From Vicinamibacterales bacterium (GTDB taxonomy: Bacteria > Acidobacteriota > Vicinamibacteria > Vicinamibacterales > UBA8438), in the NCBI GenBank assembly GCA_965206705.1, contig CBDBKJ010000006.1, positions 1,849,355 to 1,913,354 on the forward strand: DNA of 64,000 bases, in the 5' to 3' direction. The first letter of the stretch is position 1; every line of letters begins with the position of its first letter. Positions 28,157 through 47,969 of this stretch are shown here, piece by piece. The position numbers were made by a program, and so were the translations under genes. The notes beneath the pieces are model-generated. The model ran no database searches and was not told where the DNA came from. It was given only the letters and a program-made list of their open reading frames with translations.

Positions 28157-28157
28157 G

Positions 28158-30240: not shown

Positions 30241-31485
30241 TCACCGGCCCGCCCGCAGCGGCCGGAAGAAGTCGCGCAGGTCGCTCACCAGGACCTCCGG
30301 CTGCTCCATCGCCGCGAAGTGGCCGCCGCGCTCGACCTCGGTCCAGTGGGTGATGTTGTACGACGCCTCGGCCCAGCGGCGCGGGGTGATGAACAGCTCG
30401 TAGGGAAAGATGATGGCGCCGGTCGGCACCTCGATCCGCCCCATCGCCCGCGAGGTCGGGGCGTTGCGGCTCTCGTAGTAGAGCCGGGCCGAGGAGGTCG
30501 CGGTGCCGGTCACCCAGTAGATGGTGATGTTGGTGAGGAGCTCGTCCCGCGTGAAGACCGACTCGGGGTCGCCGTCGCAGTCGCACCACGCGCGGAACTT
30601 CTCGACGATCCAGGCCGCCTGCCCCGCCGGCGAGTCGTTCAGGGCATAGCCGAGGGTCTGCGGCTTGGTGCCCTGAATCTGGGCGTAGCCGCTCTCCGCG
30701 GTGGTGTAGAACGACCGTCGCGCCTCGGACCGCTGGAGCTCTTCGGGCGGCACCCCGTCGGTCGGATCGACGCCCGGCGGCGGCCCCCCGGTCAGCATGT
30801 TGAGGTGCACGCCCACGGCCCGATCGGGATGGTTGAACGCGTGCCAGCGGCTGACGATGGAGCCCCAGTCGCCGCCCTGGATGCCGTAGCGCTCGTAGCC
30901 GAGCCGCGCCATGAGCGCGGCGCCCACCTCGGCGATCTGCTCGGGGCCGAACCCGGGCGCGCGCGGCTTGTCCGAGAACCCGTAGCCGGGCATGGACGGC
31001 GCCACCACATGGAACGCATCCTCGGCCCGCCCGCCGTGGGCGACAGGATCGGTCAGGGGACCGATGATCTTCATGAACTCGGCGATCGAGCCGGGCCAGC
31101 CGTGGGTGATGATCAGCGGCAGCGCGTCCGGCTCGGGCGACCGCTGGTGGATGAAGTGGATGTCGAGATCGCCGATGACGGTCTTGAACTGATCGAACGC
31201 GTTGAGCTGCCGTTCCTGCTCGCGCCAGTCGAACTCGTCCCGCCAGTAGGTGATGAGCTCGGTCACGTAGTCGAGCTCGGCCCCGTAGTCCCAGCCCGCG
31301 CCGTCGAGCTGATCCGGCAGGCGGGTCATCTCGAGGCGGCGGCGCAGGTCGTCGAGCACCTCGTCGGGCACCGCGATCTCGAACGGCCTTAGCTCCGCGT
31401 CGTCGCCGGCCCCGCCCGCCTGTGCCATCACCGCGAGGGGCGTCAGCGCCGCGATGGCGGCCAGCCCCGCAATCCGAATCAGCAT
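30241..31485 (-). CDS. Secreted epoxide hydrolase (alpha/beta hydrolase with EH N-terminal domain)
   Basis: Signal peptide MLIRIAGLAAIAALTPLAVMAQA. RPFEIAVPDEVLDDLRRRLEMTRLP...HFIHQRSPEPDALPLIITHGWPGS is the microsomal-type EH signature. Confidence 0.85.
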   Translation of the reverse strand: MLIRIAGLAAIAALTPLAVMAQAGGAGDDAELRPFEIAVPDEVLDDLRRRLEMTRLPDQLDGAGWDYGAELDYVTELITYWRDEFDWREQERQLNAFDQFKTVIGDLDIHFIHQRSPEPDALPLIITHGWPGSIAEFMKIIGPLTDPVAHGGRAEDAFHVVAPSMPGYGFSDKPRAPGFGPEQIAEVGAALMARLGYERYGIQGGDWGSIVSRWHAFNHPDRAVGVHLNMLTGGPPPGVDPTDGVPPEELQRSEARRSFYTTAESGYAQIQGTKPQTLGYALNDSPAGQAAWIVEKFRAWCDCDGDPESVFTRDELLTNITIYWVTGTATSSARLYYESRNAPTSRAMGRIEVPTGAIIFPYELFITPRRWAEASYNITHWTEVERGGHFAAMEQPEVLVSDLRDFFRPLRAGR

Positions 31486-31825
31486 CGTCACGTTCCTCTC
31501 GTCAAGCAGCCGCAGAGCACCGCGACCGACATCGCCGCGGGGCATCTCCCTGGAAACCTCTCTCGCGGGAGTTCACGGGAAGCGGCGAGCCGTCCGGGTT
31601 CGTATCATACCAAGGCCCCGAGACCGGCCCGCCAAGGCGCCGGCCGAACCGGGTGCACGCCAGATTCGTGAGATGGGCTCTCAGGCGGCCCTTGCGGCTC
31701 GTCGCTCCCAGAAATCCTCCTTGGAACCAGCTTTTCCGTCCGCTCGCTGGCTTGCCGTCCAGGAAGCGGCGAGGAACGGCCCATATCATGGGCAGCTTCT
31801 CTTCAAGACAGTCCCCTAGCTATAG

Positions 31826-32635
31826 CTAGAGCACCACCGCGAGGGCGATGCCCGACACCACCGCGGTGGTGAGCCCCACGAGGGCGATCCGCAGGCCGTG
31901 CCGCCGCTCGAACCAGTCGGCGAATGGCCAGAAGACCCACCGCACGGCCCGCCTGAACCTCGCGAGGGCCAGCCCGAGCCCCAGCCACCAGGTGCCGGCG
32001 GCCAGCGTGACGAGGAGGGTCGCGCCGAGCCAGTACGGGGCCGGGAGCCACCCGAAGAGAAAGTCGCGCGTGGCGTGCAGTTCCGGTGGCAGCTCCGGAT
32101 CGGCGGCAAGCCCCCCCAAGAGGACGGGAGGGAGAATGACGGCAACGATAGCCAGGGCCACGTAGATGAACACGAGCGGCGGATACAGCAGCCACTTGCG
32201 GGCGCCGACCGGTTCGCTCCGTTCCTCGATCAGCGCCGCCCCGGCGCGGGCGATCAGAATGCTGGCGAAGAAGGCCAGAGGAGCGGCGGAGCCGAGAAGC
32301 GGACACCCGAGGAAGAGGCCCAGCGTCAGATACGCGAGCCGCCAGTCCTCCCGTCCCGAGCTGAGCTGGAGCAGCAGCTTCCGCCACGCCGGCAGCTCGT
32401 CGGTCGGCACCCAGTCGCCGGGGCTGCCGAGCCGGTCGAGCACACCGCGCAGACGCTCGGCCGTAACGGGCGCGGACGCGCCTTCCAGCTCCGCCTCGAT
32501 GTGCCCCCGGATCTCGCGCTCCACGTCGTCGGCATCGACCGACGGGTGCGGTCGCAGCGCGCTGTTGACGCGGCCGAGGTACCGTTCGAGGTCGCTCTGC
32601 GCGTCCTCGGTGAAGATCGGTAGCGCTGTCATCAT
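31826..32635 (-). CDS. Membrane protein co-transcribed with PadR (DUF1700/HAAS-like sensor partner)
   Basis: The start ATGATGA overlaps the padR stop. The soluble N-terminus (YLGRVNSAL...REIRGHIEAELE) is followed by several TM helices. Confidence 0.65.
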   Translation of the reverse strand: MMTALPIFTEDAQSDLERYLGRVNSALRPHPSVDADDVEREIRGHIEAELEGASAPVTAERLRGVLDRLGSPGDWVPTDELPAWRKLLLQLSSGREDWRLAYLTLGLFLGCPLLGSAAPLAFFASILIARAGAALIEERSEPVGARKWLLYPPLVFIYVALAIVAVILPPVLLGGLAADPELPPELHATRDFLFGWLPAPYWLGATLLVTLAAGTWWLGLGLALARFRRAVRWVFWPFADWFERRHGLRIALVGLTTAVVSGIALAVVL

Positions 32636-32973
32636 GATGGAACCTCCTTGCCGAGTGCGTCCATGCCCCGCTTCAGGACCTCCCAATAGGCGTTCATCTC
32701 CCCGCGCACCTGATCGCCGCGGGGGGTGAGCTCGTAGTACTTCCGGGCCGGGCCTTCGGGCGATTCCTGGAGCGATGTGCTCACCAGGCCGTCTCGCTTG
32801 AGACGGCTGAGGATGGGGTAGACCGTGCCCTCGCGGATGACGAGGGCGTCGATGCTGCGGAGCCGCTTGACGATGTCGTAGCCGTAGACCGGCGCCTGGC
32901 CCACGACGTTCAGCACGCACAGCTCCAGCACCCCTTTCCTCAATTGCGTCGTCCAGTTGTCTGTGACGTCCAT
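32632..32973 (-). CDS. PadR-family transcriptional regulator
   Basis: LRKGVLELCVLNVVGQAPVYGYDIVKRL...EGTVYPILSRLKRDGLV...RKYYELTPRG is the canonical PadR winged HTH. Confidence 0.9.
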   Translation of the reverse strand: MDVTDNWTTQLRKGVLELCVLNVVGQAPVYGYDIVKRLRSIDALVIREGTVYPILSRLKRDGLVSTSLQESPEGPARKYYELTPRGDQVRGEMNAYWEVLKRGMDALGKEVPS

Positions 32974-33284
32974 GAGCCAACTATATTTCAATGCATAGTA
33001 GCTGTCAAATAAGTGTAGACGAGAAAGGCGGGACGGCCGATGGACGGGGTCGGCACGAGGACGACCTGGCACGCGCGGGCGTGGCGGTCGAGGATGAGGC
33101 GGGTCAGCAGGCGGATGTACCGACCTGATGCGCGCACGGGTGGTAGCGGACCGAGGCGATGACCGGCTTGCCGGCCGGCATCGCCCTGGATGGGGGCGTC
33201 CCGTCAGGCCGCGACGCCGGGCGGATAGCCCGCGTTACCCTGGGGTGCCGCACCGTATCGGCAGCTACGCTGAAGCACGAATAT

Positions 33285-33298
33285 GACCAGATATGGTC
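33285..33298. promoter_or_regulatory. Inverted repeat GACCA-N4-TGGTC upstream of the phd-type antitoxin
   Basis: Perfect 5-bp arms, 11 nt upstream of the ATG at 33309, inside an AT-richer stretch. Candidate autoregulatory operator. Confidence 0.35.
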
Positions 33299-33308
33299 TA
33301 ATGAGGAC

Positions 33309-33566
33309 ATGAACCAGGTCGTGAAGGTATCGGAGCTGAAGGCGAAGCTGAGCGGCTACCTCGCCCGCGTTCGAGGCGGCGCTACCGTCACGGTCTGCGA
33401 TCGTCGGACACCGATCGCGAAGCTGGTACCCTTCGACGACGATCCCGGCGGGATCGAGGTGCGGGAACCGATCGATGCCGCCGGTCTGCCCGTCGCACCG
33501 CGCATCGCACTCCGGAAACGGATCGACGTCGTGGAGCTACTGCTGGCGGACCGGGAGCATCGGTGA
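33309..33566 (+). CDS. Phd/YefM-type antitoxin
   Basis: MNQVVKVSELKAKLSGYLARVRGGATVTVCDRRTPIAKLVP is the typical Phd/YefM N-terminus. Its stop overlaps a GTG that opens a VapC-like N-terminus. Confidence 0.75.
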   Translation: MNQVVKVSELKAKLSGYLARVRGGATVTVCDRRTPIAKLVPFDDDPGGIEVREPIDAAGLPVAPRIALRKRIDVVELLLADREHR

Positions 33567-34092
33567 CGGTCTACCTGGACACCAGCGTCGTGTTGCGCGC
33601 ACTGATCGACCTGCAGGTCCTGGCGTTCGAATCGGACCTGACCCGCATGATCACCTTCATGATCGGCAAGGAGCTGAGCAACCGCACGTTCCCCGAGATC
33701 GGGGTGCCCGACCAGCACCACCCCCTGTCGCACCATCAGAACAACCCCGAGAGCCTCGAGAAGCTCACCCGGGTGCAGATGTTCCAGACCGGGTTGCTGG
33801 CATACTACCTGGAACGCCTCGCGGCGACCGCCGACGGCGACGGCTCGCTCCTGGATCAGATCACGCTGCTCTACGGCAGCGGCATGAGCGACAGCAACCT
33901 GCATATCCCGCTCGGGCTGCCGATCCTGGTCGGGGCGGCGGCGCCGGCACCCTGAAGGGCGGCCGTCACCTCCGGTATCCGGACGGCACCCCGCTGTCGA
34001 ACCTGTACCAGACGCTGCTGAACAAGCTCGGCGTGCCCGTCGAGCGGATCGGCGACAGCACCGGGACGTTCAGGGAGCTGTCGGCCGTCTAA
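33563..34092 (+). pseudogene. Chimeric remnant: the first ~13 codons of a PIN/VapC toxin fused to the 3' half of a DUF1552 gene, which is itself frameshifted
   Basis: VTVYLDTSVVLRAL (PIN N-terminus) switches abruptly to DLQVLAFESDLTRMITFMIGKELSNRTFPEIGVPDQHHPLSHHQ... (mid-DUF1552). The tail GGGAGTLKGGRHLRYPDGTPLSNLYQTLLNKLGVPVERIGDSTGTFRELSAV is in another frame (ORF 33475..34092). Confidence 0.75.
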
Positions 34093-34174
34093 GAGTCAGC
34101 GCCTCGGGATTGGGGCCTTCTTGACGTAGGAAGCCGCGTTTGCGGGGTCGGTCTCGATGCCGTACAGCGGCCCG

Positions 34175-34489
34175 TCAGCCGCCGTCGCCGGCGCCCCCGT
34201 CGCCGAAGCCCCCGCCGTCGCCGGAACCGCCGGCGCCACTGTCCCCGCCGTCAGCCGCGAGATCGTCCCCCTGCATCGCGGCGAGCATGGCGGAGGTGTT
34301 CCCGTCGGCGTTCCCCGCGGCCTTTCCGTCCGGCCGGCCGGCGGTCCCGGACTCGCCGGTTCGGCGAGCCCACCAGGTTTCCAGCTTCGCGGCCAGCGGC
34401 GCCACCCTCGACACGGCCGCCGCGACGATCAGCGCTCCCGCCGTCAGGACGGCCAAGACCACGGCTACCGCGGCGGCGAATCTCAGCAT
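34175..34489 (-). CDS. Small membrane-anchored protein with a Gly/Asp-rich tail (hypothetical)
   Basis: MLRFAAAVAVVLAVLTAGALIVAAAV (TM helix) followed by ...DGGDSGAGGSGDGGGFGDGGAGDGG. It is the last ORF of the co-directional cluster. Confidence 0.4.
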   Translation of the reverse strand: MLRFAAAVAVVLAVLTAGALIVAAAVSRVAPLAAKLETWWARRTGESGTAGRPDGKAAGNADGNTSAMLAAMQGDDLAADGGDSGAGGSGDGGGFGDGGAGDGG

Positions 34490-34566
34490 TCCGCACCCGG
34501 ACCCTTCGGCTTCATCCGTTCCAGCTTCCCAGGTCCGCCGGCGCGCCCGGGGGCGCAACGCCTGGC

Positions 34567-36648
34567 CTACCGGGCCAGCGGGTCCGGCCTCATCTGGAAC
34601 TTGACGGCCTTGCCCAGCACGCCGTCGCCGCCTTCGCCGCGGCCGCCCTCGATGTGCCAGGTTGCATAGGTCGAGAAGCTGGCCCAGTAGCCCCGGCCCT
34701 TCCAGCCGGCGTCGGGGTCGTCGACCCGGCCGTTCCCCGAGCGGGGGAAGAACCCGAGCGGATAGGGCACCCGCAGCGTGACGTAGCGCCCGAGATTCGG
34801 CGAGAACACCTCCATGGCGTCGGTGTTCACCGACCCGTAGATCGGCGCGTCGGCCCCGAGCCCCAGCGTGTCGTGGAAGTCCATGTGGGCCAGATAGCTC
34901 TCGTTGGCATGGAAGAAGCTGTCGCCGTAGGTCGGATCGTCCTTCCGCCGATAGGACCACCCCTGGGGACAGCTCTGCCCCGTCGCCTGAGGATCGCTCG
35001 TCGTATCGCACAACGAGCGGTCGAACCCGGAGAAGTGGCCGCTGACCCGCCAGTTCTGCCACGCCACCCCCCCGCCGTCGACCTCGACGCCCCCGGATCC
35101 GATGACGTCCGGGTCGAGCCCCGGCGGCGGCTCGTAGTACTCGGCCTGACAGGTCTCGGGGGGGTTGTCGCCCTTTTCGAGCCGCACGAGCCGCCGGTCG
35201 CCGCGGCCGATGCCCGAGCACCACAGGCTGCCGTCGGCATGACTCACCGCCACCGAATAGCAGCCGAAGGCGATGCGGTGGTCCATCCCCGGCGACACCG
35301 GCTCGTCCGGCTCGGTCCATTCGATGATGACGCCGTCGCCGGTGGTGTCGATGACGGCCGGGCACCAGCCCTGGGACGCCTCGGCGTCGTGGGTCTCGTC
35401 CCACATGTCCATGTCGATCCACCCGATGGCGCCGTTCTGCCCGAAGTACAGGAAGTCGTCGTCGCTCATCTGGTTGTGGTCGGCGCTGAAGCAGGTGTCG
35501 ATCTGCTCGAACTCGCCGGTATCCGGGTCGTACAGCGATACCTGGCGGCTCGCCCGCTGCAGGGGATAGTTGGCGGCGAAAGGGTTCTCGTCCGACGTGC
35601 AGAACGCCGGCTGCTGCTCCGGATCCCGCACCCGCGACGCCATCCAGACGCGCCCCCGGCCGTCGACGGCCGAGCTCCGCACGTCGGCCCGGCGCGCCCA
35701 GACGTCGTCGCCGTAGTGGGGCGACCGGGTCGGCGACGCGTTGAACCCCCCCACGAGGGGCGGGGCCGTGGACGGCACCGTCACCACCGACGCGGTATGG
35801 GTCACGGGGTCGAGCACCGTCAACGAATCGGTCATCTCGGCGACGCCGTAGACGGGACCGTCGGCGTTCACCGTCCCGTCCCGGATGTCGGCCGCCGCCA
35901 TGTCGGTGCGCCCGTCGATCTCCGAGCCCCAGTCCCACAGCGTGATCACCAGGTTGCGCTCCGCTCCGGCGGGACGGGGCGGGGCCTCGGCCGGCGCCAC
36001 GCCCGCCGCCACGCGATCCGACCAGTCGGCGAGGGCCTGCCGCATGTCGCCCAGCGCCCGGAACTGCTGCGCCATGCCCGGTCCGGACGGCCCCACCCCG
36101 GTGCGCCGGGTCCAGGCGTCGAGGGTCGAGCCGGCGCCCCGCATGGCCGGCAGCATCTCGCGGGTCGCCTTGTTGCCCACCTGGTGGCAGTCGTAGCACT
36201 GCTTCATGGTCAGGGCGAAGTCGAGCTGGGCGGCGGGGTCGGCCGGGGGCTCGACCATCGTCAGCCACCACCCGGCCGGGTACACCTGCGCCGCCGCCCG
36301 CGCGTCCGGGGCGAGGGTCGCCTCGATGTCGACCTGATCGCCGGGGCCGGCCGGCACCCGGGCCGAGTCGAGCAGCCCATAGCCCCGCACGAACAGCTCG
36401 TAGCGCGCTGCCGGCAGATCCGGTACGACGTAGCGGCCCTCGTCGTCGGTGACGACGATGCGGGCGAGCTTCGTGGGCAGATCGGTGGTCTCGGCAATCA
36501 CCCAGACCCCCGCCTCCGGACCATCGGCGCTGGTCACCACCCCGCCGATGTCGTCCGCATCGATGGGAACCCCGGTCTGCGCGGCGACCCACACCAGCGA
36601 ACCGGCCAGCCCCGCCGCGACCACCAGCGCACGTTTCCACACGGGCAT
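34567..36648 (-). CDS. Secreted carboxypeptidase-regulatory-like domain protein with one CxxCH heme motif and a large C-terminal region of unassigned fold
   Basis: Start trimmed to MPVWKRALVVAAGLAGSLVWVAAQ. GVVTSADGPEAGVWVIAETTD...DDEGRYVVPDLPAARYELFVRG is a CarboxypepD_reg-like fold. It also contains MKQCYDCHQVGNK. Confidence 0.75.
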   Translation of the reverse strand: MPVWKRALVVAAGLAGSLVWVAAQTGVPIDADDIGGVVTSADGPEAGVWVIAETTDLPTKLARIVVTDDEGRYVVPDLPAARYELFVRGYGLLDSARVPAGPGDQVDIEATLAPDARAAAQVYPAGWWLTMVEPPADPAAQLDFALTMKQCYDCHQVGNKATREMLPAMRGAGSTLDAWTRRTGVGPSGPGMAQQFRALGDMRQALADWSDRVAAGVAPAEAPPRPAGAERNLVITLWDWGSEIDGRTDMAAADIRDGTVNADGPVYGVAEMTDSLTVLDPVTHTASVVTVPSTAPPLVGGFNASPTRSPHYGDDVWARRADVRSSAVDGRGRVWMASRVRDPEQQPAFCTSDENPFAANYPLQRASRQVSLYDPDTGEFEQIDTCFSADHNQMSDDDFLYFGQNGAIGWIDMDMWDETHDAEASQGWCPAVIDTTGDGVIIEWTEPDEPVSPGMDHRIAFGCYSVAVSHADGSLWCSGIGRGDRRLVRLEKGDNPPETCQAEYYEPPPGLDPDVIGSGGVEVDGGGVAWQNWRVSGHFSGFDRSLCDTTSDPQATGQSCPQGWSYRRKDDPTYGDSFFHANESYLAHMDFHDTLGLGADAPIYGSVNTDAMEVFSPNLGRYVTLRVPYPLGFFPRSGNGRVDDPDAGWKGRGYWASFSTYATWHIEGGRGEGGDGVLGKAVKFQMRPDPLAR

Positions 36649-36949
36649 CGACTCCTCCTGACTCGTTTCCGAACGCCCGGCCTCTCCCCGGGGCCCCCGC
36701 GGTTTCGTCGGCGGGAACGGGTGTGGGCCGGCTTGTGCGAGAACGGGACCGCAAGAGTATCCGCCCCGGTGCAGGAAGTCGGGAAACGCAGGTATCCGGC
36801 CGACCCGACCGGGCTCTTGTGGCAAACAGGCCCAAGCCTCTTCCTCGACCCCGCCCACCCGAAGCGCCGACTCGAGGGGGGCTCGACCGGTACCGGCCGA
36901 GGCCGGGCCGCCGACGGCGCGCAGTAGTGCGCCGCCGCGGCGCCGCTCC

Positions 36950-37411
36950 TCAGGGGAGGGCGCTCGAATTGACCCGGTAGCCGCCGTCTCCGTCCGGCTC
37001 GCGGTACACCGCGTGACAGGCGATGCAGCCTTCGGTAGCCTCGCTCGCGATCGCGGCGGCCGCCGCGGCGTCCACCGACTCGGCCGAGAGCGCGGTGTCG
37101 AGCGCATCCAGCCGCTCCAGGGCCGTCCGCAGCCACGCCACCGCATCCTGCCGGTCGCGATCGCGCCAGAACGTGACGGTGGTGGCCAGCTGCTCGCGGG
37201 ACCGGATGGCCCGTTCCTTGGCGGTGGAGAAGTCGCCCGCCGCCAACGCCGCCCGCACGCCGGCGACGTTCGGGCCGAGCGTCGTCATGATGGCGTCGAG
37301 ATGCGCCGCGGTGAAGATTGGATAGGGCCCGTCCTGCCCGGCCGCCGCCGCAGGCAGCGAGAGCAGGACGGCGACCGTCAGGGCAGGTCCGACCGCACGT
37401 GGCCAGGGCAT
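36950..37411 (-). CDS. Class II cytochrome c (cytochrome c' / c556-like four-helix bundle)
   Basis: Signal peptide, helical composition, and a single CIACH heme motif about 25 residues from the C-terminus. It lies 24 nt downstream of the DUF1552 gene. Confidence 0.7.
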   Translation of the reverse strand: MPWPRAVGPALTVAVLLSLPAAAAGQDGPYPIFTAAHLDAIMTTLGPNVAGVRAALAAGDFSTAKERAIRSREQLATTVTFWRDRDRQDAVAWLRTALERLDALDTALSAESVDAAAAAAIASEATEGCIACHAVYREPDGDGGYRVNSSALP

Positions 37412-37435
37412 GTCGCGATTCCAGGCGCCCGAGAG

Positions 37436-38794
37436 TTACACGCCGGTCAACCGGCCGAGCCGACCGGTGCTGTCGCCGAACGCCTCCACCGGCGTCCCCA
37501 GCTTCTCGAGAATCGTGACGTGCAGATTGGCGAGCGGCGTGTCCTGGGGATAGCGGACGTATCGGCCGCCGGTGATGCCGGCGTTCTTCCCCCCGACGAG
37601 GGCCACCGGCAGATCGTCGTGGAAGTGCGTATTGCTGTCGCTGATGCCGGTGCCGTAGAGGAACAGGGTGGAGTCGAGCATCGACCCGTCCCCCTCGGGA
37701 ATGGCGTCGAGCTTCGCCACGAGGTAGGCGAACTGCCGGAAATGGTACTCGTTGATGAGATGCAGCCGGTTGAGCTTGGCCGGCTCGTCCTGGTGGTGCG
37801 ACAGCGGATGGTGCGAGTCGGGCACGCCAATCTCCGGATAGGCGCGTCCGCTGACCTCTCGCGCCAGCATGAAGGTGCTGATGCGGGTCAGGTCGGTCTG
37901 GTAGGCGAGCGCCAGCAGGTCCATCATCAACGTCGCGTGCTCGAGGTAGTCGCTCGGCACCCCGATCGGCTGGTCGACGACCGGCAGCTCGCGGGTGTTC
38001 TGCTCCTCGGCCATCGCGATCCGCCGCTCGATGTCCCGGACCGCCTCGGCGTACTCGTCGAGCTTGGCCCGGTCGCCCGGTCCCACGACCTGTCCCAGCC
38101 CGCGCAGCTCGTCGTTCACCAGATCGAGGATGCTCCGGTCGCGCCGCATCCGCGCCAGCCGCGCCGCCGGGTCGGTACTGCCGCTGGTGCCGAACAGCCG
38201 CTCGAACACCGCGCGCGGGTCGTTCTCGATCGGCAGCGGGGTGGTCGGCGTCCGCCAGGCGATGGTGTTGGTATAGGCGCAGCTCGCACCGCCGTCGCAG
38301 TTCCCGACCATCGCGTTCGACTCGATGCCCAGCTCGAGCGACGCCAGCTGGGTTTCCTTCTCCAGCTCGCGGGCCGCGATCTGGTCCACCGAGATCGCAT
38401 TGGAGACGTCGGCCCCGTTGGTCATCTTGTAGGGCACGCAGGTCAGGAAGGTGCCGGCAGACCGGGCGTGGTCGCCGCCGCCCTTGACGAGGTTGGCCGA
38501 CTCGTCGTCGAGGCCGCCGCAGATGACCACCTTGTCCCGGAACGCCTCCAGCGAGCCCATCGTCGGCGGCAGGCTCTCCAGCTTCCCCGGCTCGTGCCGC
38601 GGGTACCAGTAGGGCATCGACATTCCGTTCGGCACGTAGAACACGCCGAAGCGCTTGATCGGCGCGGCGGCGGTCCGGCTCTGCGCGGTCAGGGCCGGGA
38701 CCATGCCGTCGAGCAACGGGAGGGCCACGGTGGCGCCGAGACCGCGCAGGACGGTGCGACGAGGCAGATGCATTCGCGTGATGAACATGGCCAC
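37436..38794 (-). CDS. DUF1552 domain protein, TAT-exported (module 2)
   Basis: MFITRMHLPRRTVLRGLGATVALPLLDGMVP and GVPDSHHPLSHHQ. Paralog of 8897..10246 and 47970..49343. Confidence 0.85.
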   Translation of the reverse strand: MAMFITRMHLPRRTVLRGLGATVALPLLDGMVPALTAQSRTAAAPIKRFGVFYVPNGMSMPYWYPRHEPGKLESLPPTMGSLEAFRDKVVICGGLDDESANLVKGGGDHARSAGTFLTCVPYKMTNGADVSNAISVDQIAARELEKETQLASLELGIESNAMVGNCDGGASCAYTNTIAWRTPTTPLPIENDPRAVFERLFGTSGSTDPAARLARMRRDRSILDLVNDELRGLGQVVGPGDRAKLDEYAEAVRDIERRIAMAEEQNTRELPVVDQPIGVPSDYLEHATLMMDLLALAYQTDLTRISTFMLAREVSGRAYPEIGVPDSHHPLSHHQDEPAKLNRLHLINEYHFRQFAYLVAKLDAIPEGDGSMLDSTLFLYGTGISDSNTHFHDDLPVALVGGKNAGITGGRYVRYPQDTPLANLHVTILEKLGTPVEAFGDSTGRLGRLTGV

Positions 38795-38914
38795 TCTCCA
38801 GAAGTACCGAAACGCAAGGGCCCGCAGGCCGCTCGCCCGGACAGCGCGCCTTGCGGCTTCGCTGCCCGCCCAACCGATCCTACAGGAACCCGTGCCCGTC
38901 CGGGGCGCGGATTC

Positions 38915-41320
38915 CTACGGCTGGGCGTCCACCAGGGTTTCCACCGCCTGGGGCGCGCGGCGCATCAGGAACGGCTCGCTCGTGACGACGCCGAGAACCA
39001 GCGACGACCAGCGGTAGTCGTCGTGCTCCAGGTTCCGCACTATCCGTCGCAGGGTCGGCGCATCGTAGTAGTCGACGCCGCGGCCCAGCGCATAGATCAG
39101 CAGCTTCTCGGCCACGGTGTGCACGAACTCGTGCCCGGACGCGAGCAACCCCTCGCGGAACGCGCGGGGGTTGTCGACGGTCGCGCCGTTCCACTCGATC
39201 GTCGCGTTGATCTCGGCCCCGCCGTCGCTCTCCCGCCAGCGTCCGATGGCGTCGAAGTGCTCCATCGCGAAGCCCAGCGGGTCCATCCGGGTGTGACAGC
39301 TCGCGCAGACCGGGCTGCTGCGATGCTGCTCCATCCGCTCGCGCAGCGACGTCGGACGGGCGCGGTCGCTCTCGGGCAGCGGCGGCACGTTGGCCGGCGG
39401 GGGCGGCGGCGGCGCGCCGAGCAACGTCTCGAGCACCCACAGGCCGCGCAGCACCACCGACGTCCGGTTCGCGTAGGAGGTGACGGTCAGCAGGCTCGCG
39501 TGCCCCAGCAGCCCGTGCCGGCGGTCGTCGTTCCATTGGTGGCGCCGGAAGTGGCTGCCGTAGATGTCGTCCACGCCGTAGTGGCGCGCGAGCTGCTCGT
39601 TCAGGAACGTGTAGTCGGCCCGCAACAGGTCCTGCAACGGGCGGTCCTCCCGTAGCTGGCTCTGGAAGAACAGCTCCGTCTCGCGGACCATCGCCTTGCG
39701 CAGCGAATCGTTGAACCCCGCGAAGAGCGCGCCGTCGGGGTCCTGCGAATAGAGGTTCCGCACCTGCAGCCACTGGCCCGCGAAGTCGTCCATGAACCGC
39801 GTGGCCCGCGGGTCGGCGAGCATCCGGCCCACCTGCCCGGCGAGTGTATCGGGGTCGCTCAGGGCGTCCCGCTCGGCCAGCTCGAGCAGCTCGTCGTCGG
39901 GAACGCTCTTCCACAGGAAGAACGACAGCCGGGTCGCCAGTTCGAGGTCGGTCAGGCGGTAGATGGCGCCGGCCGGGGTGTCCACGGGCTGCCGCTCGAC
40001 CCGCATCAGGAACTGCGGCATCGAGAGCAGGGCCTCGAGCGCCCGCTCTATCCCCGCCTCGAAGTCTCGTTCCCGCCGTCCCTCGCGGTAGATGCCCATC
40101 AGCGGCTCGACGTCATCCGAGCCGACCGGGCGGCGGTAGGCCCGGCGGGCAAGCTGGGCGATGATCGCGCGCGCACAGGGCTCTTCGTCCTCCGCCCGGT
40201 CCGGCCGGCACGTGAAGATGCGCCTGCGGCTGGGGGTATCGTCCGGCACCGCGCCGTCGAACGGTCCGGAGACGAAGACCTGGTGGATGCCCGGCAACAG
40301 ACCGGGGGGATGCGGAGACGGCGCCGAGTCGGTGAACGCGACCGACAGCAGCCGGGTCCCCGCCTCGACCGGCACCCGGACCTCCAGCGCGCGGTCCGCG
40401 GTCATCCGGTACTCGTGCAGCCGCTGCCCCTCGACGTCGTCTTCCGGGACCGCGATCAGCGAGCCGGGGTCGGGGCCGGGATACTGCCCCCCGATGGCGA
40501 ACTGCTCGACCAGGGCATGGTCGATCCGGATCTCGATCTCGTGCTCGCTCTCGGCGATGCCGTCGATCGTCTCGATGGTCTCGTTGCGCTTGAGCCGGAT
40601 GGCGAAGAGGTACTCGCCGTCCAGGGGGAAATGGTGTCGAACGGCCAGCCCGCCGTGGGTGGCGAACGGCAGATCCTCACCCGCCCGCACGTCACGCTGC
40701 TCGTAGCCCACCTCGTAGAGCTGCATGACCGGACGGGTGTCCGGGCTGCCGACGGCGGCCCGGCTGATCTTCGTCGCGGCCGCGATGTAGCGGGCCATCA
40801 ATCCCGGCGTGACCGACAGCACGTCGGCGTTGTTGTCGAAGCCGAATCCCGCCATGTCCGACGGCAGCAGCTCCTCGCCGTTGACCTCGAGGCCCAGCAG
40901 ATCCTCGATGACGTTGACGTACTCGACGCGGTTCAACCGCCGCGACGCCACCCGCCCCGGATTCGGGTCGGCCGCCGCCACCCGATCGAGCGCGTGCTCG
41001 AGGGACGTCACGAAGGCGTCGACCACCGCGCCGTCGGGGCGTGGCCGTCCCTCCGGCGGCATCTGTCCGCTGCGCAGCTTGTGGACGACCTTCTCGAGGA
41101 TCGGCGCGTGAGCTGCGGCCTGCGTGGGATCCACCTCGCCGAGGTCGAGCCCGCCGGTCAGCAGGCGCGGGTTGTGGCAGGTGACGCAGTAGCGGTCGAA
41201 CAACTCGCGGGACGGCGGGTCGGCATCCCCTTGACCGGCGGCCACCGCCACCGGCCATGCCGCGAACGCCACTCCCAACGCCAGGGTCGCACGGATGACT
41301 CGCTCGAGCATGGCCGCCAC
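38915..41320 (-). CDS. DUF1592/DUF1588/DUF1585-type protein with two CxxCH motifs (module 2)
   Basis: LFDRYCVTCHNPRL and SSPVCASCHTRMDPLGFAMEHFD. Collinear with the other two paralogs. Confidence 0.85.
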   Translation of the reverse strand: MAAMLERVIRATLALGVAFAAWPVAVAAGQGDADPPSRELFDRYCVTCHNPRLLTGGLDLGEVDPTQAAAHAPILEKVVHKLRSGQMPPEGRPRPDGAVVDAFVTSLEHALDRVAAADPNPGRVASRRLNRVEYVNVIEDLLGLEVNGEELLPSDMAGFGFDNNADVLSVTPGLMARYIAAATKISRAAVGSPDTRPVMQLYEVGYEQRDVRAGEDLPFATHGGLAVRHHFPLDGEYLFAIRLKRNETIETIDGIAESEHEIEIRIDHALVEQFAIGGQYPGPDPGSLIAVPEDDVEGQRLHEYRMTADRALEVRVPVEAGTRLLSVAFTDSAPSPHPPGLLPGIHQVFVSGPFDGAVPDDTPSRRRIFTCRPDRAEDEEPCARAIIAQLARRAYRRPVGSDDVEPLMGIYREGRRERDFEAGIERALEALLSMPQFLMRVERQPVDTPAGAIYRLTDLELATRLSFFLWKSVPDDELLELAERDALSDPDTLAGQVGRMLADPRATRFMDDFAGQWLQVRNLYSQDPDGALFAGFNDSLRKAMVRETELFFQSQLREDRPLQDLLRADYTFLNEQLARHYGVDDIYGSHFRRHQWNDDRRHGLLGHASLLTVTSYANRTSVVLRGLWVLETLLGAPPPPPPANVPPLPESDRARPTSLRERMEQHRSSPVCASCHTRMDPLGFAMEHFDAIGRWRESDGGAEINATIEWNGATVDNPRAFREGLLASGHEFVHTVAEKLLIYALGRGVDYYDAPTLRRIVRNLEHDDYRWSSLVLGVVTSEPFLMRRAPQAVETLVDAQP

Positions 41321-41389
41321 CTCTTCACTCTCCGGGTCCGGGACCCCAGTATAACGCCAGACGGTCCCCGAATCCGCGTGCGTACGGAT

Positions 41390-42562
41390 TCAGGCGACCA
41401 TCACGGTTCTCGGGAACTGCGAGTTGTCCTCGAGGCCGGTCTGCTTGATGGCCGACAGCTCGTCGCTCGTCGGCTGCACGTTGCCGTTCACGTCGGTGAC
41501 GCGGGACACCAGGGTGTGCTCGCCCGACGAGGCCCCGGTCCACGTGAACCGGAACAGCTTCCACGAGTACTGACCGCTGGTCGACGGGTCCAGCGTCGCC
41601 GCCTGCCACGCCCCGTCGTCCACCTTGACCTGCACCCCGCGCAGCGGCGTGCCGTCGTGCAGGACGAAGCCGAGCACCTCGTGACGGTCGCCGACCCGGG
41701 TCACCCGCGCGATCACCGACTTGACGCGCAGGCGAGAGACCTCGGTCTCGTGCCACACCGTTTCGCCGCCGATCTCCTCGGACCACAGGGTGCGATACCA
41801 CCGCGCCTGCCACTTGCCGACGAACCGCTCCGACTGCAGGCGGATGTGGGAGAGCCACTTCACGTTGCTCACGCCGTACCAGCCGGGCACCAGCAGCCGC
41901 AACGGCGAACCCTGCTCCAGCGTCAGCGGCGCCCCGTTCAGCGCATAGGCCAGCAGCGGTCCCGTGGTCATTCCGTCGGCCAGCGACAGGCTGCGGGCGA
42001 ACGGCTGATCGACCTCGTGCGGGGTCCCCCGGAAGTCGACGGTCTCCGGTCCCTTGTCGGCGCCGAAGAAGACGACCTCGCGAGCCGACGGCTTCACCCC
42101 GACCAGATCGAGCACCGCGCGCAGCGGCACGCCCGTCCACCGGCCGTTGCTCGCCAACCCCTGGATGAGCCGGCGCGAGTTGCCCGAGCATTCGTAGCCG
42201 GCGTCGATCTCGATGCTGTCCATGCCCCGCAGATCGTCGAGACTCAGCCCCGCGGGCCGATCGACGAGACCGGACACCCCCAGGCTGAACCCGGCCGGAT
42301 CGACGACCGGCTTGTCGAAGTGCTGAATCGTGTAGAAGGAATCGGCCGGGGTGTACGGGCCGTCGATGTTCCGGACGTCGTAGATGCGGATGGCGGCGGC
42401 GGGGTTCGGCTGCCCGAAGTTCTCCGGCACGTCGGTGAACGGCACCGGCGTCTCGCCCTGAGCCAGGGCCGGCAGCGCCCACCCGGGCACGCCGATCACC
42501 CCCGCGCCGGCCAACGCCAGACTCTGCTTCATCATCTCCCGCCGGGTCGTTCCATTCGTCAT
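41390..42562 (-). CDS. Sulfite-oxidase-family molybdopterin oxidoreductase (SorA-like), TAT-exported
   Basis: MTNGTTRREMMKQSLALAGAGV (TAT signal), Moco-Cys motif GYECSGNSRR, LLVPGWYGVSNVKWL, and a C-terminal Ig-like dimerisation domain. Confidence 0.85.
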   Translation of the reverse strand: MTNGTTRREMMKQSLALAGAGVIGVPGWALPALAQGETPVPFTDVPENFGQPNPAAAIRIYDVRNIDGPYTPADSFYTIQHFDKPVVDPAGFSLGVSGLVDRPAGLSLDDLRGMDSIEIDAGYECSGNSRRLIQGLASNGRWTGVPLRAVLDLVGVKPSAREVVFFGADKGPETVDFRGTPHEVDQPFARSLSLADGMTTGPLLAYALNGAPLTLEQGSPLRLLVPGWYGVSNVKWLSHIRLQSERFVGKWQARWYRTLWSEEIGGETVWHETEVSRLRVKSVIARVTRVGDRHEVLGFVLHDGTPLRGVQVKVDDGAWQAATLDPSTSGQYSWKLFRFTWTGASSGEHTLVSRVTDVNGNVQPTSDELSAIKQTGLEDNSQFPRTVMVA

Positions 42563-42612
42563 CGCGCGCTCCTTGCCGGCATCGCGGGCCGGCGGGTCTT
42601 GCCGCTTCCGGA

Positions 42613-42745
42613 ACCGGCGCTCTTGCGCCGGCGTGCCGTCCGGGCCGGCGTGTCGTGCCGGACCGGCGTCTCGTCCTGGGCCGGGCCGGCGTATCGTTAC
42701 CGAGCCGGCGTCTCGTGACCGAGCGTTACCGAGCCGGCGTCTTAC
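42613..42745. repeat. Degenerate tandem array (6-7 units, 17-29 nt spacing) of RCCGGCGT-NTCGTNNCCG
   Basis: GCCGGCGT (or ACCGGCGT at 42662) occurs at 42627, 42644, 42662, 42685, 42704 and 42733, with a weaker copy at 42613. The array fills the spacer between two co-directional genes. Confidence 0.7.
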
Positions 42746-43728
42746 TGGGACCCGTCCTCCGCGCTGACGGCCGCGCCGGCGAGGATGTTGAACAGGCCGT
42801 AGTTGCCTTCGTGGCAGGCGTACTCGTACAGCGGATACTGATTGCGCTGCATCGGCACCGAGTAGGTCCAGGGCCGGGTCCAGACCGTCGGATCGTCGAC
42901 CGTCACGTCGTACTGCAACGTGTCGCCGTCCACCCGGGTGAAACGCTCGATCAGCGTCAGACTGGGGGTGGTCGCGCCTCGCTGGAAGTTCGTTTCGCGG
43001 AGGAAGTTGGTGGTCTCGACGACCAGGGTGTCGCCATCCCACCGGCCGCGCGAATCACCGGTCCACTGCCGGACGGAGCCTTCGAGATGGTCGCGCCCGT
43101 CCAGCGGCACGACGCGGGCGTTGTGGTTCATCTCTGCGAAGAGGACGACCGTATCCTCGGTCTGGAACACCTGCAGGTTGTTGTTGTAGGCGCTCGGGGC
43201 CATCGGCGGACCCGAGTTGAAGCCGAGGATGCAGCGCACCTGCAGCCCGCCGGGACCCAGATCCTCGACGAAGCCCCCGGGCGTCGGCTCGTGGTTCGAC
43301 ACGCCGCTGCGCGCCTCCGCCAGGGCTTCCTGCCGCTGCCGGGCCTCTTCGGTCAGGGGCGGGATGCGGCCGTCGGGGGGATCGACGATCAGCGACGTGC
43401 GCTCGGTGGTTACCGAGGTCCCCTCATCGAACCAGAAATCGTTGTACGGCACCACGCGGTCCGAGGTGTCGTTGTCGCGGCTCCTCCGCTGAATGGTCGC
43501 AGCCGCGAACTCCGCCGCCTGCTCGGCCGAGAAGCGCTCATCCCCCGCCAGCTCCTCCGGGCGCTCCATCGGGGTCAGGCTGCGAAAATCCCAGACACCC
43601 TGCAGATCCGGGGCGCCCCACGCGGTGCGGGGCGCGGCCGGCGCCTCGGTCTGGGCGCCGGCGCCGGCCGGCGCCAACGTCCCGAGCGCCACCGCGGTCA
43701 GCGAACAGGCGATCAATCGACAATCCAT
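42742..43728 (-). CDS. Secreted conserved hypothetical protein ('YEYACHEGNYG' family), copy A
   Basis: Signal peptide MDCRLIACSLTAVALGTLAPAGAGAQ. It is collinear with 55155..56078 (PDLQGVW, NDFWF, SLIVDPPDGRIPP, GDSRGRWDGDTLVVETTNF, ERFTRVD, YEYACHEGNYG). Confidence 0.75.
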   Translation of the reverse strand: MDCRLIACSLTAVALGTLAPAGAGAQTEAPAAPRTAWGAPDLQGVWDFRSLTPMERPEELAGDERFSAEQAAEFAAATIQRRSRDNDTSDRVVPYNDFWFDEGTSVTTERTSLIVDPPDGRIPPLTEEARQRQEALAEARSGVSNHEPTPGGFVEDLGPGGLQVRCILGFNSGPPMAPSAYNNNLQVFQTEDTVVLFAEMNHNARVVPLDGRDHLEGSVRQWTGDSRGRWDGDTLVVETTNFLRETNFQRGATTPSLTLIERFTRVDGDTLQYDVTVDDPTVWTRPWTYSVPMQRNQYPLYEYACHEGNYGLFNILAGAAVSAEDGSQ

Positions 43729-44045
43729 CTTCCACCTCCATGACAGCCCGGGGTGACGGCCCACCCGGGGCGCGAGACCACGACACCGGTGTCTCCGGCG
43801 CAGACGGAGGGTGTTCGCCGCACGGGACGGGCACCCGCGACCGACGTTGCCAACCGTATATGTATACCCCATGTCCGCCTCTGGCGGCGGCACCATCCGG
43901 TCGGCGGCGGCAGGAGCCCCGGCCCGCGGCATCGGTGTTGCCGGTCGCCGGTGCCGGCGCGGCGCCCTCCCGGCCGGCGACAGGAGCCTGCCCGACGAGC
44001 CGGTCCGGCGGCGGGATGACGACCGCGACGGCGGTCATCGCGCCC

Positions 44046-44939
44046 TCACCGGTCCGGCCACGCCCGCTCGACCACCCGATCGAACGGGCGCGCCACGCGT
44101 TGCATCCGGTAGGCCTGCCGGCGGCGCAGGTCGTATCGATCCCCGGCCCCCAGGAAGTAGAACCGCCCCCCCGAGTCGAGCAGCCGCTGATGGTCGTAGA
44201 TGACGACGTAGCTGCGTCCCATCACCTCGAACTGATCGCCCTCGACGACGATCGCCGTATCCTCGTCGAGCCCGATGCCCAGCAGATGGGGATGGGCCTC
44301 GATCACCTCGATGAGGTCGAACTGACGATTGCGCCGCAGCAGGTGCTGGTCGATCGCGGTGTCGCGCAGGAAACCGAAGCCGACCTCGTGGTCGCCCATC
44401 ATGACCGTGTTGGTGGCGGTGTCGCCGCGGGCGAGATAAGAGCCCAGGATCGTCGCGCCGGCCGACGAGCCTCCGACCACCCCGCCGCGCCGGAGCACCC
44501 CGGCGACCTCTTCCTGCACGAGCGTGTCGAGATAGGCATCGGCGAGGCGCCACTGCCGCCCCCCCGGAAACCACACCCCGCGCGCCTGCCGCAGCGGAGC
44601 GCTGAACGCCGGGTCGTCGGCCACCGCGCGATCCGTCGTGTGCAGCACCGTCAGGTTGGCGGCCCCGGCCTCCCTGAATGCGCTAAGTCCCGGATAGTGC
44701 TCATCGTAGGTCTCGCCGCCGCCGGCCGTCGGAATGACCACGATCGGAGCCTCGGGCCCACCCGCCAGCTGGACGAACCGCTCGACGATCGCCGGATCCT
44801 GCATCGCGCCGCCGACGATCACCAGCGCCCCCCGCGCCGGTCCCACCTCCTGAGCCGCGGGCCGGGCCTGCGCCAGCCAGCCGATGGTCCAGACCGCGAC
44901 GACGACGCTCGCACCGACCCAGGCTCTGCTCCGCATCAT
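44046..44939 (-). CDS. Peptidase S51 / cyanophycinase-like protein, secreted
   Basis: ALVIVGGAMQ..., VIPTAGGGE, GGSSAGATILG (nucleophile elbow), and DQHLLRRNRQFDL. Confidence 0.8.
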   Translation of the reverse strand: MMRSRAWVGASVVVAVWTIGWLAQARPAAQEVGPARGALVIVGGAMQDPAIVERFVQLAGGPEAPIVVIPTAGGGETYDEHYPGLSAFREAGAANLTVLHTTDRAVADDPAFSAPLRQARGVWFPGGRQWRLADAYLDTLVQEEVAGVLRRGGVVGGSSAGATILGSYLARGDTATNTVMMGDHEVGFGFLRDTAIDQHLLRRNRQFDLIEVIEAHPHLLGIGLDEDTAIVVEGDQFEVMGRSYVVIYDHQRLLDSGGRFYFLGAGDRYDLRRRQAYRMQRVARPFDRVVERAWPDR

Positions 44940-45091
44940 CCGCCCTTCGCAGGAATGAAATCGAAGCGGAATTGTATAACGGCGCCACGAACTGGCTGGC
45001 ATTCTGGACGCGGAAAGTCTGCCGGGTTGCCGGCCTTCCGGCGGGGAGGTTGCAGGACCATCGACAGCGCGATCGAGGAAACCGTGTGGAC

Positions 45092-45490
45092 TCAGGGCAC
45101 GAGGGCAGAGTGGTTGCCGCGGGCCGATCGCCGATCGAACGTATAGGTGCATGTACACCCATGCGCGTGGTTGCGATGGGCGATCAGATAGTCCGCGAAG
45201 TCGGCGGCGCCGAATTCGAACTCGCGCAATGCAGCCCAGACGGTGTCGCGATCCTCGACCGCGAACTCGGCCGTCCGCAGGATTTGGCGCATCACCGGGA
45301 TGACGACGGCCTTTTCTTGGTGGTAGGCGGTCGTCAGGACCCACACCAACTCGACCAGCACGGGCACGCTGACGTAGCCGGGCGACTGCGCCGTGCAGCC
45401 CCCTTCGATGAGGCGCACCACGGCGGCCGCCTGCTCGGGATCGTCCTGCACGATGTAGCGCACCAGGATGTTCGTGTCGAGACCGATCAT
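45092..45490 (-). CDS. vapC: PIN-domain VapC-family toxin
   Basis: MIGLDTNILVRYIVQDDPEQ... with downstream acidic PIN residues. The start overlaps the stop of the antitoxin gene (ATGA). Confidence 0.8.
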   Translation of the reverse strand: MIGLDTNILVRYIVQDDPEQAAAVVRLIEGGCTAQSPGYVSVPVLVELVWVLTTAYHQEKAVVIPVMRQILRTAEFAVEDRDTVWAALREFEFGAADFADYLIAHRNHAHGCTCTYTFDRRSARGNHSALVP

Positions 45491-45732
45491 CGGATTAACG
45501 AGCGGCGGGCGGCCGCCTTCGCGATGGCTGCGTCCATCTCCTGCAGGCTGACCGGGACTGCCGGTTTCGGCACCATGCCCTTCAGTTGCGTCACCGACGC
45601 GGTGACGGGCGTGACTCGCAGGCCGTCGCCTTCCAGCATGAAGTCGATCTTGTCGCCCGGTTTGAGGTGAAGCTTGTCCCGAATCGGTTTGGGCAGGGTC
45701 ACCTGCCCCTTGCTGGTAATCGTCGCCTGCAT
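45487..45732 (-). CDS. AbrB/MazE/SpoVT-family antitoxin
   Basis: MQATITSKGQVTLPKPIRDKLHLKPGDKIDF is the swapped-hairpin AbrB-type DNA-binding motif. Confidence 0.85.
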   Translation of the reverse strand: MQATITSKGQVTLPKPIRDKLHLKPGDKIDFMLEGDGLRVTPVTASVTQLKGMVPKPAVPVSLQEMDAAIAKAAARRSLIR

Positions 45733-45750
45733 TACATTCTCCCCGCAATC

Positions 45751-45766
45751 CTTACATATAGGTAAG
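45751..45766. promoter_or_regulatory. Inverted repeat CTTAC-ATATAG-GTAAG upstream of abrB-vapC
   Basis: Perfect 5-bp arms, 19 nt upstream of the antitoxin start codon, AT-rich. Candidate operator or -10 region. Confidence 0.35.
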
Positions 45767-45955
45767 ATACAGCCGGGTGGAAGCTGAGGTCAAGGACGGG
45801 TCGCCCGGACCCGTTCCCGTCTCGGGGCGCCATGCTGGCCGACCTGCGCACCGTGATGACGCCCTGGAGCGGGAATCGGCGGAGACCGAGGAACGGGCGG
45901 TGGCCTGTGTGGCGGCGACGCGGGCGAAGAGAGTTTGCTGGTCTGCGGATATCCG

Positions 45956-47953: not shown

Positions 47954-47969
47954 GGGGCAATGCCGATCG

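Follow-up and report, generated by a model that had tools for sequence, protein, structure and literature searches.

A DUF1592–DUF1552–class II cytochrome c trio as the probable core of a mixed heme and molybdenum gene cluster in Vicinamibacterales

Introduction

Does a run of exported-protein genes combining a molybdoenzyme, a DUF1592/DUF1552 pair and several proteins with putative c-type heme motifs constitute one dedicated periplasmic system, or a conserved core with incidental neighbours? The question is raised by positions 34175..43728 of a 64,000-nucleotide stretch of a Vicinamibacterales (Acidobacteriota) bacterium, contig CBDBKJ010000006.1, the whole of which is referred to hereafter as the window. 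An initial annotation of this locus had joined the DUF1592/DUF1552 pair to a SorA-type enzyme of the sulfite oxidase family in a single redox cluster. Our comparative analysis favours another reading, to which we assign a probability of about 0.65: the 9.5-kb stretch is a composite built around a three-gene module, DUF1592–DUF1552–class II cytochrome c, and not one dedicated system.

Pairs of a PSCyt3/PSD protein (DUF1587, DUF1595, DUF1592, DUF1588, DUF1585) and a DUF1552 protein were first described in Rhodopirellula baltica and later in Verrucomicrobia, their function being unknown, and PSCyt3-type genes usually adjoin a gene family of unknown function (PMC5615132). No paper assigning a function to either DUF1552 or DUF1592 was found. 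The pair studied here resembles those described in that its first protein has the same domain set and order, with both CxxCH motifs, in that the DUF1552 gene lies immediately downstream on the same strand, and in its multi-copy occurrence. It differs in its host, a member of the Acidobacteriota (Vicinamibacterales) rather than of the Planctomycetes–Verrucomicrobia–Chlamydiae (PVC) group, in lacking carbohydrate-binding modules, and above all in its near-obligate third gene, which encodes a class II cytochrome c.

Gene content of the cluster

As the window has a GC content of about 70%, mechanical lists of open reading frames (ORFs) are crowded with shadow ORFs, and genes were therefore called from third-position GC content (GC3). 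The nearest relatives are metagenome-assembled genomes of Vicinamibacterales, with approximately 86–94% nucleotide identity over the aligned genes of the region. GC3 calls and Pfam matches bear out the seven minus-strand genes initially described, both in coordinates and in gene content. They are named g1 to g7 below, with export signals assigned by eye only:

42742..43728, minus strand: g1, protein with the C-terminal motif YEYACHEGNYG and a Sec-type signal; no Pfam or NCBIfam match
41390..42562, minus strand: g2, molybdoenzyme (PF00174 Oxidored_molyb, E 5.4e-41) with the twin-arginine N-terminus TRREMMK
38915..41320, minus strand: g3, protein of about 800 amino acids with PSD3, PSD5, PSD4 (DUF1592), PSCyt3 and PSD2 domains; predicted to be Sec-exported
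37436..38788, minus strand: g4, HXXSHH/DUF1552 protein (PF07586, E 5.5e-98) with the twin-arginine N-terminus LPRRTVLRG
36950..37411, minus strand: g5, small protein with CIACH near its C-terminus; predicted to be Sec-exported
34567..36648, minus strand: g6, 693-amino-acid protein with a CarboxypepD_reg domain, one CxxCH motif (CYDCH) and a C-terminal region of about 500 amino acids without recognised fold
34175..34489, minus strand: g7, protein with one N-terminal transmembrane helix and a Gly/Asp-rich tail

Starting from the S51 peptidase gene that precedes g1, the successive intergenic gaps are 317 bp (S51–g1), 179 bp (g1–g2), 78 bp (g2–g3), 126 bp (g3–g4), 24 bp (g4–g5), 301 bp (g5–g6) and 77 bp (g6–g7). 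All called genes in 22986..51850 are on the minus strand, except for two unsupported short plus-strand calls, namely a DUF1552 pseudogene fragment and a 68-amino-acid ORF at 36721..36927. Consequently, co-directionality delimits no unit here and the limits of the seven genes are arbitrary. Scanning 33900..45000 for promoters and terminators yielded counts on a par with those of shuffled sequence, which have no bearing on operon structure, and an Rfam search of the window returned no RNA family. Among the seven genes, CxxCH is present in g3, g5 and g6 only, g1 containing merely 'ACH', so that the four heme-motif proteins counted initially are in fact three.

Conservation of the DUF1592–DUF1552–cytochrome c trio

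The g5 homologues form a small family of about 200 matches, some of which are annotated as cytochrome c556 or carry PF01322. A scan of metagenomes with a g5 alignment yielded 77 loci, all counts being restricted by the flanking length available. A DUF1552 gene was found directly upstream of the g5 homologue in 48 of the 51 loci with at least 1 kb of upstream sequence, and a DUF1592 gene upstream of DUF1552–g5 in 34 of the 36 with at least 3 kb. The trio is retained down to 43–50% g5 identity, where flanking synteny is lost and both the upstream and the downstream genes vary. The distant family members examined were 58–68% identical. Gene order matches the trio in L086 (DUF1592–DUF1552–g5–g6–DUF1592–DUF1552–Ank), in L087 (DUF1592–DUF1552–g5–DUF1592–DUF1552–Ank–EHN, the last being an epoxide-hydrolase-like gene) and in L089.

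The surroundings of the trio are more fluid. Among the 25 metagenome loci with at least 6 kb of upstream sequence, a divergent ankyrin gene lies upstream of the g3-type pair in 18 and a g1-family gene upstream of the trio in none. In the 39 loci scored for the gene after g5, this place is taken by g6 seven times, by the first gene of a second DUF pair eight times and by an epoxide-hydrolase-like gene seven times. We read DUF1592, DUF1552 and the class II cytochrome c as a unit probably kept together by evolution, with g6 as an optional fourth gene; the probability stated above applies to this unit jointly with the whole explanation. A recurrent cytochrome neighbour of the pair had been proposed initially as a comparative check on the cluster, and it holds for a class II cytochrome c within this pair's orthologue group (48/51).

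Could g5 instead have remained beside an already known pair by descent alone, as synteny within Vicinamibacteria and with nothing functional beyond the pair itself? All g5 loci appear to derive from related Acidobacteriota-like genomes, and in nearer relatives the epoxide-hydrolase-like and glyoxalase neighbours are conserved as well. Such an account nevertheless seems very improbable to us, since at 43–50% g5 identity the trio persists while none of 10 loci has the epoxide-hydrolase and glyoxalase genes, only 24 bp separate g4 from g5, and g4 is unusually constrained wherever g5 is present (73–92% identity between g4 orthologues where the adjacent g5 proteins share only 43–67%, a strongly unequal constraint).

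Two further candidates for conserved parts of the module were rejected. The epoxide-hydrolase-like and glyoxalase genes do not belong to the core, being syntenic in 4 of 8 loci with g5 at least 60% identical and in none of the 10 deeper ones. A conserved g3–g4 spacer element was likewise discarded: the spacer ranges from 1 to 572 bp, and its long versions contain an unrelated 88-amino-acid ORF absent from the window. These inserts of 420–570 bp between DUF1592 and DUF1552 were observed in L001:13777-14239 and likewise in L008, L010, L011 and L013, the ORF specifying a transmembrane helix and repeated 'EEMAAEFAAVRE' units, whereas the window has the spacer of 126 bp instead.

The molybdoenzyme and its neighbourhood

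The closest characterised relatives of g2 belong to the SorAB type of Starkeya novella (PDB 2BLF; related SorT/SorU and SoxCD). The match to SorA (2BLF chain A, E about 1e-35) spans both domains, extending over residues 43–351 of 373 and thereby including the C-terminal dimerisation (Ig-like) domain. PF03404 gave no match on g2 itself, yet is recorded for its homologues P0061 and P0093. The molybdenum-ligand cysteine is C125, which aligns with SorA C104 and chicken C185; the CSGNSR motif is present, as are the equivalents of SorA Tyr236 and His57 and of chicken W204, Y322 and R190. A twin-arginine motif is what would be expected of a periplasmic enzyme. The RR residues are invariant in both the g2 and the g4 families; with the NCBIfam twin-arginine translocation (TAT) model g2 reaches 15.7, short of the 16.7 cut-off. 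Differences from these enzymes are nonetheless pronounced. Its scores fall far under the curated equivalog cut-offs (161.8 against 600 bits for SorA, 140.7 against 420 for SoxC, 129 against 570 for SorT), and at the position of SorA R55 and chicken R138 it carries Ile79, an isoleucine conserved across the family (consensus FYTIQHF). Mutation of this substrate arginine in the human enzyme, R160Q, severely impairs sulfite oxidation, so sulfite is not assured as the g2 substrate. From its sequence, g2 would be a periplasmic, twin-arginine-exported molybdoenzyme of the sulfite oxidase family with a SorA-like two-domain architecture and an uncertain substrate; the initial label of a SorA-like enzyme is appropriate for the architecture, not for equivalog status nor for the substrate arginine.

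SorA-type dehydrogenases of this family use a c-type cytochrome as acceptor, which gives the idea of a single pathway its appeal. In that scheme all seven genes, the DUF pair included, would serve one periplasmic route: g2 would oxidise sulfite or a different oxyanion, with g5, g3 and g6 taking up the electrons. The genes are indeed co-directional with just 78 bp between g2 and g3; the order g2–g3–g4 recurs in 12 close relatives and in the metagenome locus L091, g5 following g4 in all of them except L007; and the absence of any gene family recurring beside g2 orthologues makes a borrowed acceptor plausible.

Wider sampling of g2 argues otherwise. Its homologues number in the thousands in Acidobacteriota, and 80 genome loci around g2 orthologues were taken and each searched with all window proteins. 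The order S51–g1–g2–g3–g4–g5 was present only where the molybdoenzyme is at least 86% identical, that is in 13 loci including L001, and one further adjacency of molybdoenzyme and pair was found in L091, with a g2 orthologue of 84%. All loci with the molybdoenzyme beside the pair thus have g2 orthologues 84–95% identical and fall in one shallow Vicinamibacterales clade. Where the g2 orthologue is 56–77% identical (70 loci), no co-directional adjacent pair was found; three of these 70 have an unrelated paralogous pair (39–48% identical) within 10 kb on the opposite strand. Clustering of all ORFs in the 70 distant loci disclosed no conserved neighbour of any kind, sorB-, sorU- or soxD-like cytochrome genes included, so that g2, unlike SorA, has no conserved sorB-like neighbour and its context varies by lineage. 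A 77% orthologue in a 6.6-Mb genome, for instance, is flanked by PQQ-domain and lactonase genes. On the 3.94-Mb contig ERZ28763718:ctg125454, orthologues of g4 (87%) and g2 (76%) lie more than 3 Mb apart. Viewed from the other side, the molybdoenzyme is upstream in only 1 of the 25 g5-centred metagenome loci with at least 6 kb of upstream sequence.

We conclude that g2 is a recent neighbour outside the conserved core and that it says nothing on the function of the pair. The tie of the pair to a SorA-type redox enzyme, on which the initial annotation was founded, consequently does not extend to other genomes outside the close clade, and an association missing from other genomes had been named at the outset as a refutation of it. 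The single pathway also has to contend with the low equivalog scores and missing arginine of g2, with g6 being dispensable in close relatives, with g1 belonging to a background multi-copy family, and with the co-directionality of the whole of 22986..51850. We regard it as improbable, and sulfite or oxyanion oxidation would be conceivable, at similarly low odds, only as a clade-specific addition. In the composite reading, g2, g1 and the S51 peptidase gene would have been placed beside the trio once, in the ancestor of the shallow Vicinamibacterales clade, without being required partners. What survives of the extracytoplasmic redox pathway proposed initially is its heme-based electron-transfer context, with g5 following the pair and g6 recurring; the link to a sulfite- or oxyanion-oxidising enzyme does not.

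Predicted roles of the trio proteins

The five Pfam domains of g3 match in the order listed with E values of 1e-19 to 2e-46. Its first heme motif, CVTCH at residue 42, belongs to an N-terminal class-I-like cytochrome c motif (CVTCH ... MPP) and its second, CASCH at residue 669, lies within PSCyt3. Of 73 homologous ORFs, 69 retain both motifs, and the other four are cut by contig ends. In Cbp2D of Cellvibrio japonicus, DUF1587 is combined with X183, a c-type cytochrome domain by which lytic polysaccharide monooxygenases are reduced (PMC8981238), and this protein provides a precedent for DUF1587-type proteins as electron-transfer partners of extracytoplasmic metalloenzymes. Like g3 it is an exported multi-domain protein with PSD3/DUF1587 and c-type heme, and its role as donor to an extracytoplasmic metalloenzyme is our working model for g3 and g4. 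The two differ in that the other domains of Cbp2D are carbohydrate-binding and FN3 domains and that it has no DUF1552 partner; a single Pfam domain is shared, and the likeness is drawn from the published description.

The top 120 database homologues of g4 are 83–96% identical to it. Many His and Asp residues and two Cys are invariant across its paralogues, a pattern compatible with a metal site. The NCBIfam TAT model gave no match for g4. Over residues 1–35 (38684..38788), the pattern 'PRRT-LRG-G----LP-L----P' is near-invariant across paralogues only 38–54% identical overall, and such conservation of the presumed Tat region of DUF1552 suggests that it does more than serve as a cleaved targeting signal. 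An AlphaFold2 model of g4, built on the 83–96% identical homologues and two paralogues, reached a predicted local distance difference test (pLDDT) score of 53, that is, low confidence. Most of the top 50 Foldseek matches of this model are folds of the alkaline phosphatase superfamily.

In g5, the residues C129, C132 and H133 of the single CxxCH near the C-terminus and Met42 are invariant among 20 family members. Its AlphaFold2 model (pLDDT 78.6) consists of four helices (35–57, 61–84, 88–108 and 115–136), with CxxCH ending helix 4, and Foldseek returned four-helix bundles including cytochrome c' 1GQA, none of them significant. PDB profile matches are weak (E 0.01–3), mainly to cytochromes c' and b562; PF01322 remains below threshold (E 0.05, 15 bits against a cut-off of 26.5), with homologues P0199 and P0201 carrying precomputed matches to it. 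The protein resembles class II cytochromes (c', c556 and the b562 fold) in its small size, its four-helix bundle and its single C-terminal CxxCH. Its invariant N-terminal Met falls approximately at the position of b562 Met7, which points to an electron carrier of the low-spin, His/Met-ligated type and away from a five-coordinate cytochrome c'. It differs from them in the sub-threshold PF01322 score and in its fixed place after DUF1552, which is undescribed for class II cytochromes. We consider g5 to be probably a class II four-helix cytochrome c, His/Met-ligated and c556-like.

In the mechanism that we propose, the DUF1552 protein g4 would be a periplasmic catalytic metalloprotein, probably the metal-binding catalytic subunit and possibly with a core like that of the alkaline phosphatase superfamily. 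The two predicted hemes of the DUF1592 protein g3 would make it a dedicated electron-transfer and scaffold subunit for DUF1552, and g5 would shuttle electrons between the respiratory chain and the g3/g4 complex, or would pass them to g6. The third position in the paralogous modules is taken by an ankyrin-repeat protein, which in one of them bears a cytochrome c domain itself. A bolder proposal, which we put forward tentatively and hold to be clearly less likely than the composite nature of the cluster, is that the trio represents a new kind of periplasmic oxidoreductase in which three c-type hemes connect an alkaline-phosphatase-like DUF1552 metalloprotein with a twin-arginine N-terminus to the respiratory chain, and to which this clade may add a sulfite-oxidase-family molybdoenzyme as electron source.

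The same structural matches lend themselves to a different interpretation, in which DUF1552 would be a hydrolase or transferase of the alkaline phosphatase superfamily acting on an organic ester, the DUF1592 hemes would serve substrate binding, sensing or maturation, and the module would function in periplasmic scavenging, not in energy metabolism. The matches of the g4 model are mostly to sulfatases, phosphopentomutases, iPGM, LtaS and alkaline phosphatases, none of them significant, and the C-terminal motifs of g4 are collinear with those of a DUF1501 protein, a family classified as alkaline-phosphatase-like. The known PSCyt2/PSD1 (DUF1549/DUF1553) and DUF1501 pair, exemplified in L090, follows an analogous plan, with a Tat-signal protein encoded after a large PSCyt/PSD protein that has heme motifs, although the Pfam families differ. 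Exported hydrolases are plentiful in the window and in related loci (the sulfatase at 57404..58882, an S9 peptidase, epoxide-hydrolase-like and glyoxalase-fold proteins), sulfatase genes adjoin related trios, and sulfatase genes have been noted near PSCyt genes (PMC5615132). However, g4 has neither a Sulfatase family match nor profile similarity to the sulfatase of the window, no structural or profile match is significant, and the near-obligate cytochrome c (48/51) together with the two conserved heme motifs of g3 favours redox chemistry. We find a hydrolytic role unlikely, if slightly less so than the single seven-gene pathway.

Several points weigh against the composite reading and its oxidoreductase mechanism. 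Heme binding by the CxxCH proteins is predicted from their motifs only, and the catalytic role and possible alkaline-phosphatase-like fold of DUF1552 rest on the model with a pLDDT of 53. Foldseek gave no significant match for that model (best E 0.011, TM score at most 0.34). Alignments of DUF1552 with hhalign against a DUF1501 protein and against the sulfatase of the window were not significant, and a more diverse DUF1552 profile had no relevant match among PDB sequences. At the level of gene order, L084 has g5–g6 without the DUF pair, and g5 may therefore serve g6 as much as the pair. Additionally, the 78-bp junction between the molybdoenzyme gene and g3 is kept in all 13 own-clade relatives with adjoining sequence, and g2 may be functionally coupled to the trio in a lineage-specific manner within the clade of the window.

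Genes g1, g6 and g7

The g1 family is multi-copy, uncharacterised and very large (15,920 representative clusters at E <=1e-3). Besides the lack of Pfam and NCBIfam matches for g1, the family profile had no match in the PDB. Its members share the C-terminal motif [YF]E[YH]ACHEGN, with C141, C280, E277 and E282 invariant, and occur in tandem arrays of up to five copies (L018, L019, L058); a paralogue 45% identical to g1 is found at 55155..56078 of the window. As the commonest neighbour of the molybdoenzyme, g1 was considered as its specific associate, a candidate that we rejected: among long loci, 10 of the 48 around the molybdoenzyme and 5 of the 23 around g5 have a family member nearby, equal frequencies that amount to background. 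Its position beside g2 and the trio is due to chance or recent juxtaposition.

The CxxCH of g6 is kept in 14 of 14 homologues, its CarboxypepD_reg score (31.5 bits) is slightly below the cut-off of 32.3, and no match was found among PDB sequences. Within the close clade, the window shares g6 with L005, L006 and L014, and no g6 was detected after g5 in L001, L004 and L007–L013; the gene also adjoins g5 in L084 and L086. It is thus a recurrent but optional accessory gene. A CarboxypepD_reg protein encoded at 52303..54087 was considered as its paralogue and rejected, no significant similarity being found. No family match in Pfam or NCBIfam was obtained for g7, of which weak orthologues occur only in L011 and L013, directly after g5; this gene is poorly conserved and of doubtful relevance.

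Paralogous modules and other features of the window

The window contains three DUF1592/DUF1552 pairs, at 8897..12678, 37436..41320 and 47970..51850, approximately 50% identical to one another, g3 and g4 being the second. The two others and their associated genes are:

8897..12678, minus strand: module 1 DUF1592/DUF1552 pair with overlapping stop and start codons; 50% identical to g4 and 47% to g3
7311..8897: ankyrin-repeat protein with a signal peptide, directly after module 1 (Pfam ankyrin)
47970..51850, minus strand: module 3 DUF1592/DUF1552 pair with overlapping stop and start codons; identities 51–52%
45956..47953, minus strand: ankyrin-repeat protein with a signal peptide, directly after module 3 (Ank and a C-terminal Cytochrom_C domain with CAACH)
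33593..34089, plus strand: DUF1552 pseudogene fragment, a fourth paralogue, 5'-truncated and frameshifted; C-terminal part of about 165 amino acids (PF07586, E 5e-22)

Ankyrin proteins look like recurrent partners of DUF1592/DUF1552 pairs in Acidobacteriota. In tblastn the pseudogene fragment matches each of the three intact DUF1552 genes at 48–57% identity, in two high-scoring segment pairs that differ in frame. It lies in a stretch, approximately 31627..34536, that fails to align with the closest g6-carrying relatives and that also includes two of the remaining features of the window:

32632..32991: PadR regulator, within the non-aligning stretch
31826..32635: HAAS-domain membrane protein, within the non-aligning stretch
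30241..31545: exported epoxide-hydrolase-like protein
29056..30159: tandem glyoxalase-fold protein with a TAT signal
24682..28802, minus strand: set of three genes of the xanthine dehydrogenase family
28158..28802, minus strand: 2Fe-2S subunit of this set, with a TAT signal
25715..28156, minus strand: putative Mo-cofactor subunit of this set
24682..25620, minus strand: putative FAD subunit of this set
45092..45732, minus strand: PIN/AbrB-MazE toxin–antitoxin pair, between module 3 and the S51 peptidase gene
52303..54087, plus strand: CarboxypepD_reg–CxxCH–Vgb_lyase-propeller protein, divergent from module 3
57404..58882: sulfatase
4146..5769, minus strand: HipA-like kinase with a small upstream regulator
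60199..61665, minus strand: IS66-family transposase

The set at 24682..28802 resembles periplasmic aldehyde oxidoreductases of the PaoABC type. In close relatives, this set, the epoxide-hydrolase-like gene and the glyoxalase-fold gene all keep their synteny with the trio. On the plus strand, 52303..56078 holds in order the propeller protein, a DUF6282/amidohydrolase protein and the g1 paralogue, domain themes that echo the surroundings of g3 and g4. At 24342..24429 on the minus strand, within the coding region 23982..24509, ARAGORN reported a 'tRNA-???' with a two-base anticodon, almost certainly a spurious call.

Significance

In Planctomycetota, Verrucomicrobiota, Acidobacteriota and related phyla, DUF1592-type and DUF1552 genes rank among the commonest conserved pairs without an assigned function. 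Showing that g2 is a recent neighbour prevents this large family from being wrongly annotated with a role such as the oxidation of sulfite or oxyanions. The near-constant presence of a class II cytochrome c after one orthologue group of the pair supports a redox role and offers a concrete three-protein target for biochemistry. If the trio does prove to be an oxidoreductase, it would constitute an enzyme class without a characterised member, despite the tens of thousands of DUF1552 genes carried by soil and marine bacteria.

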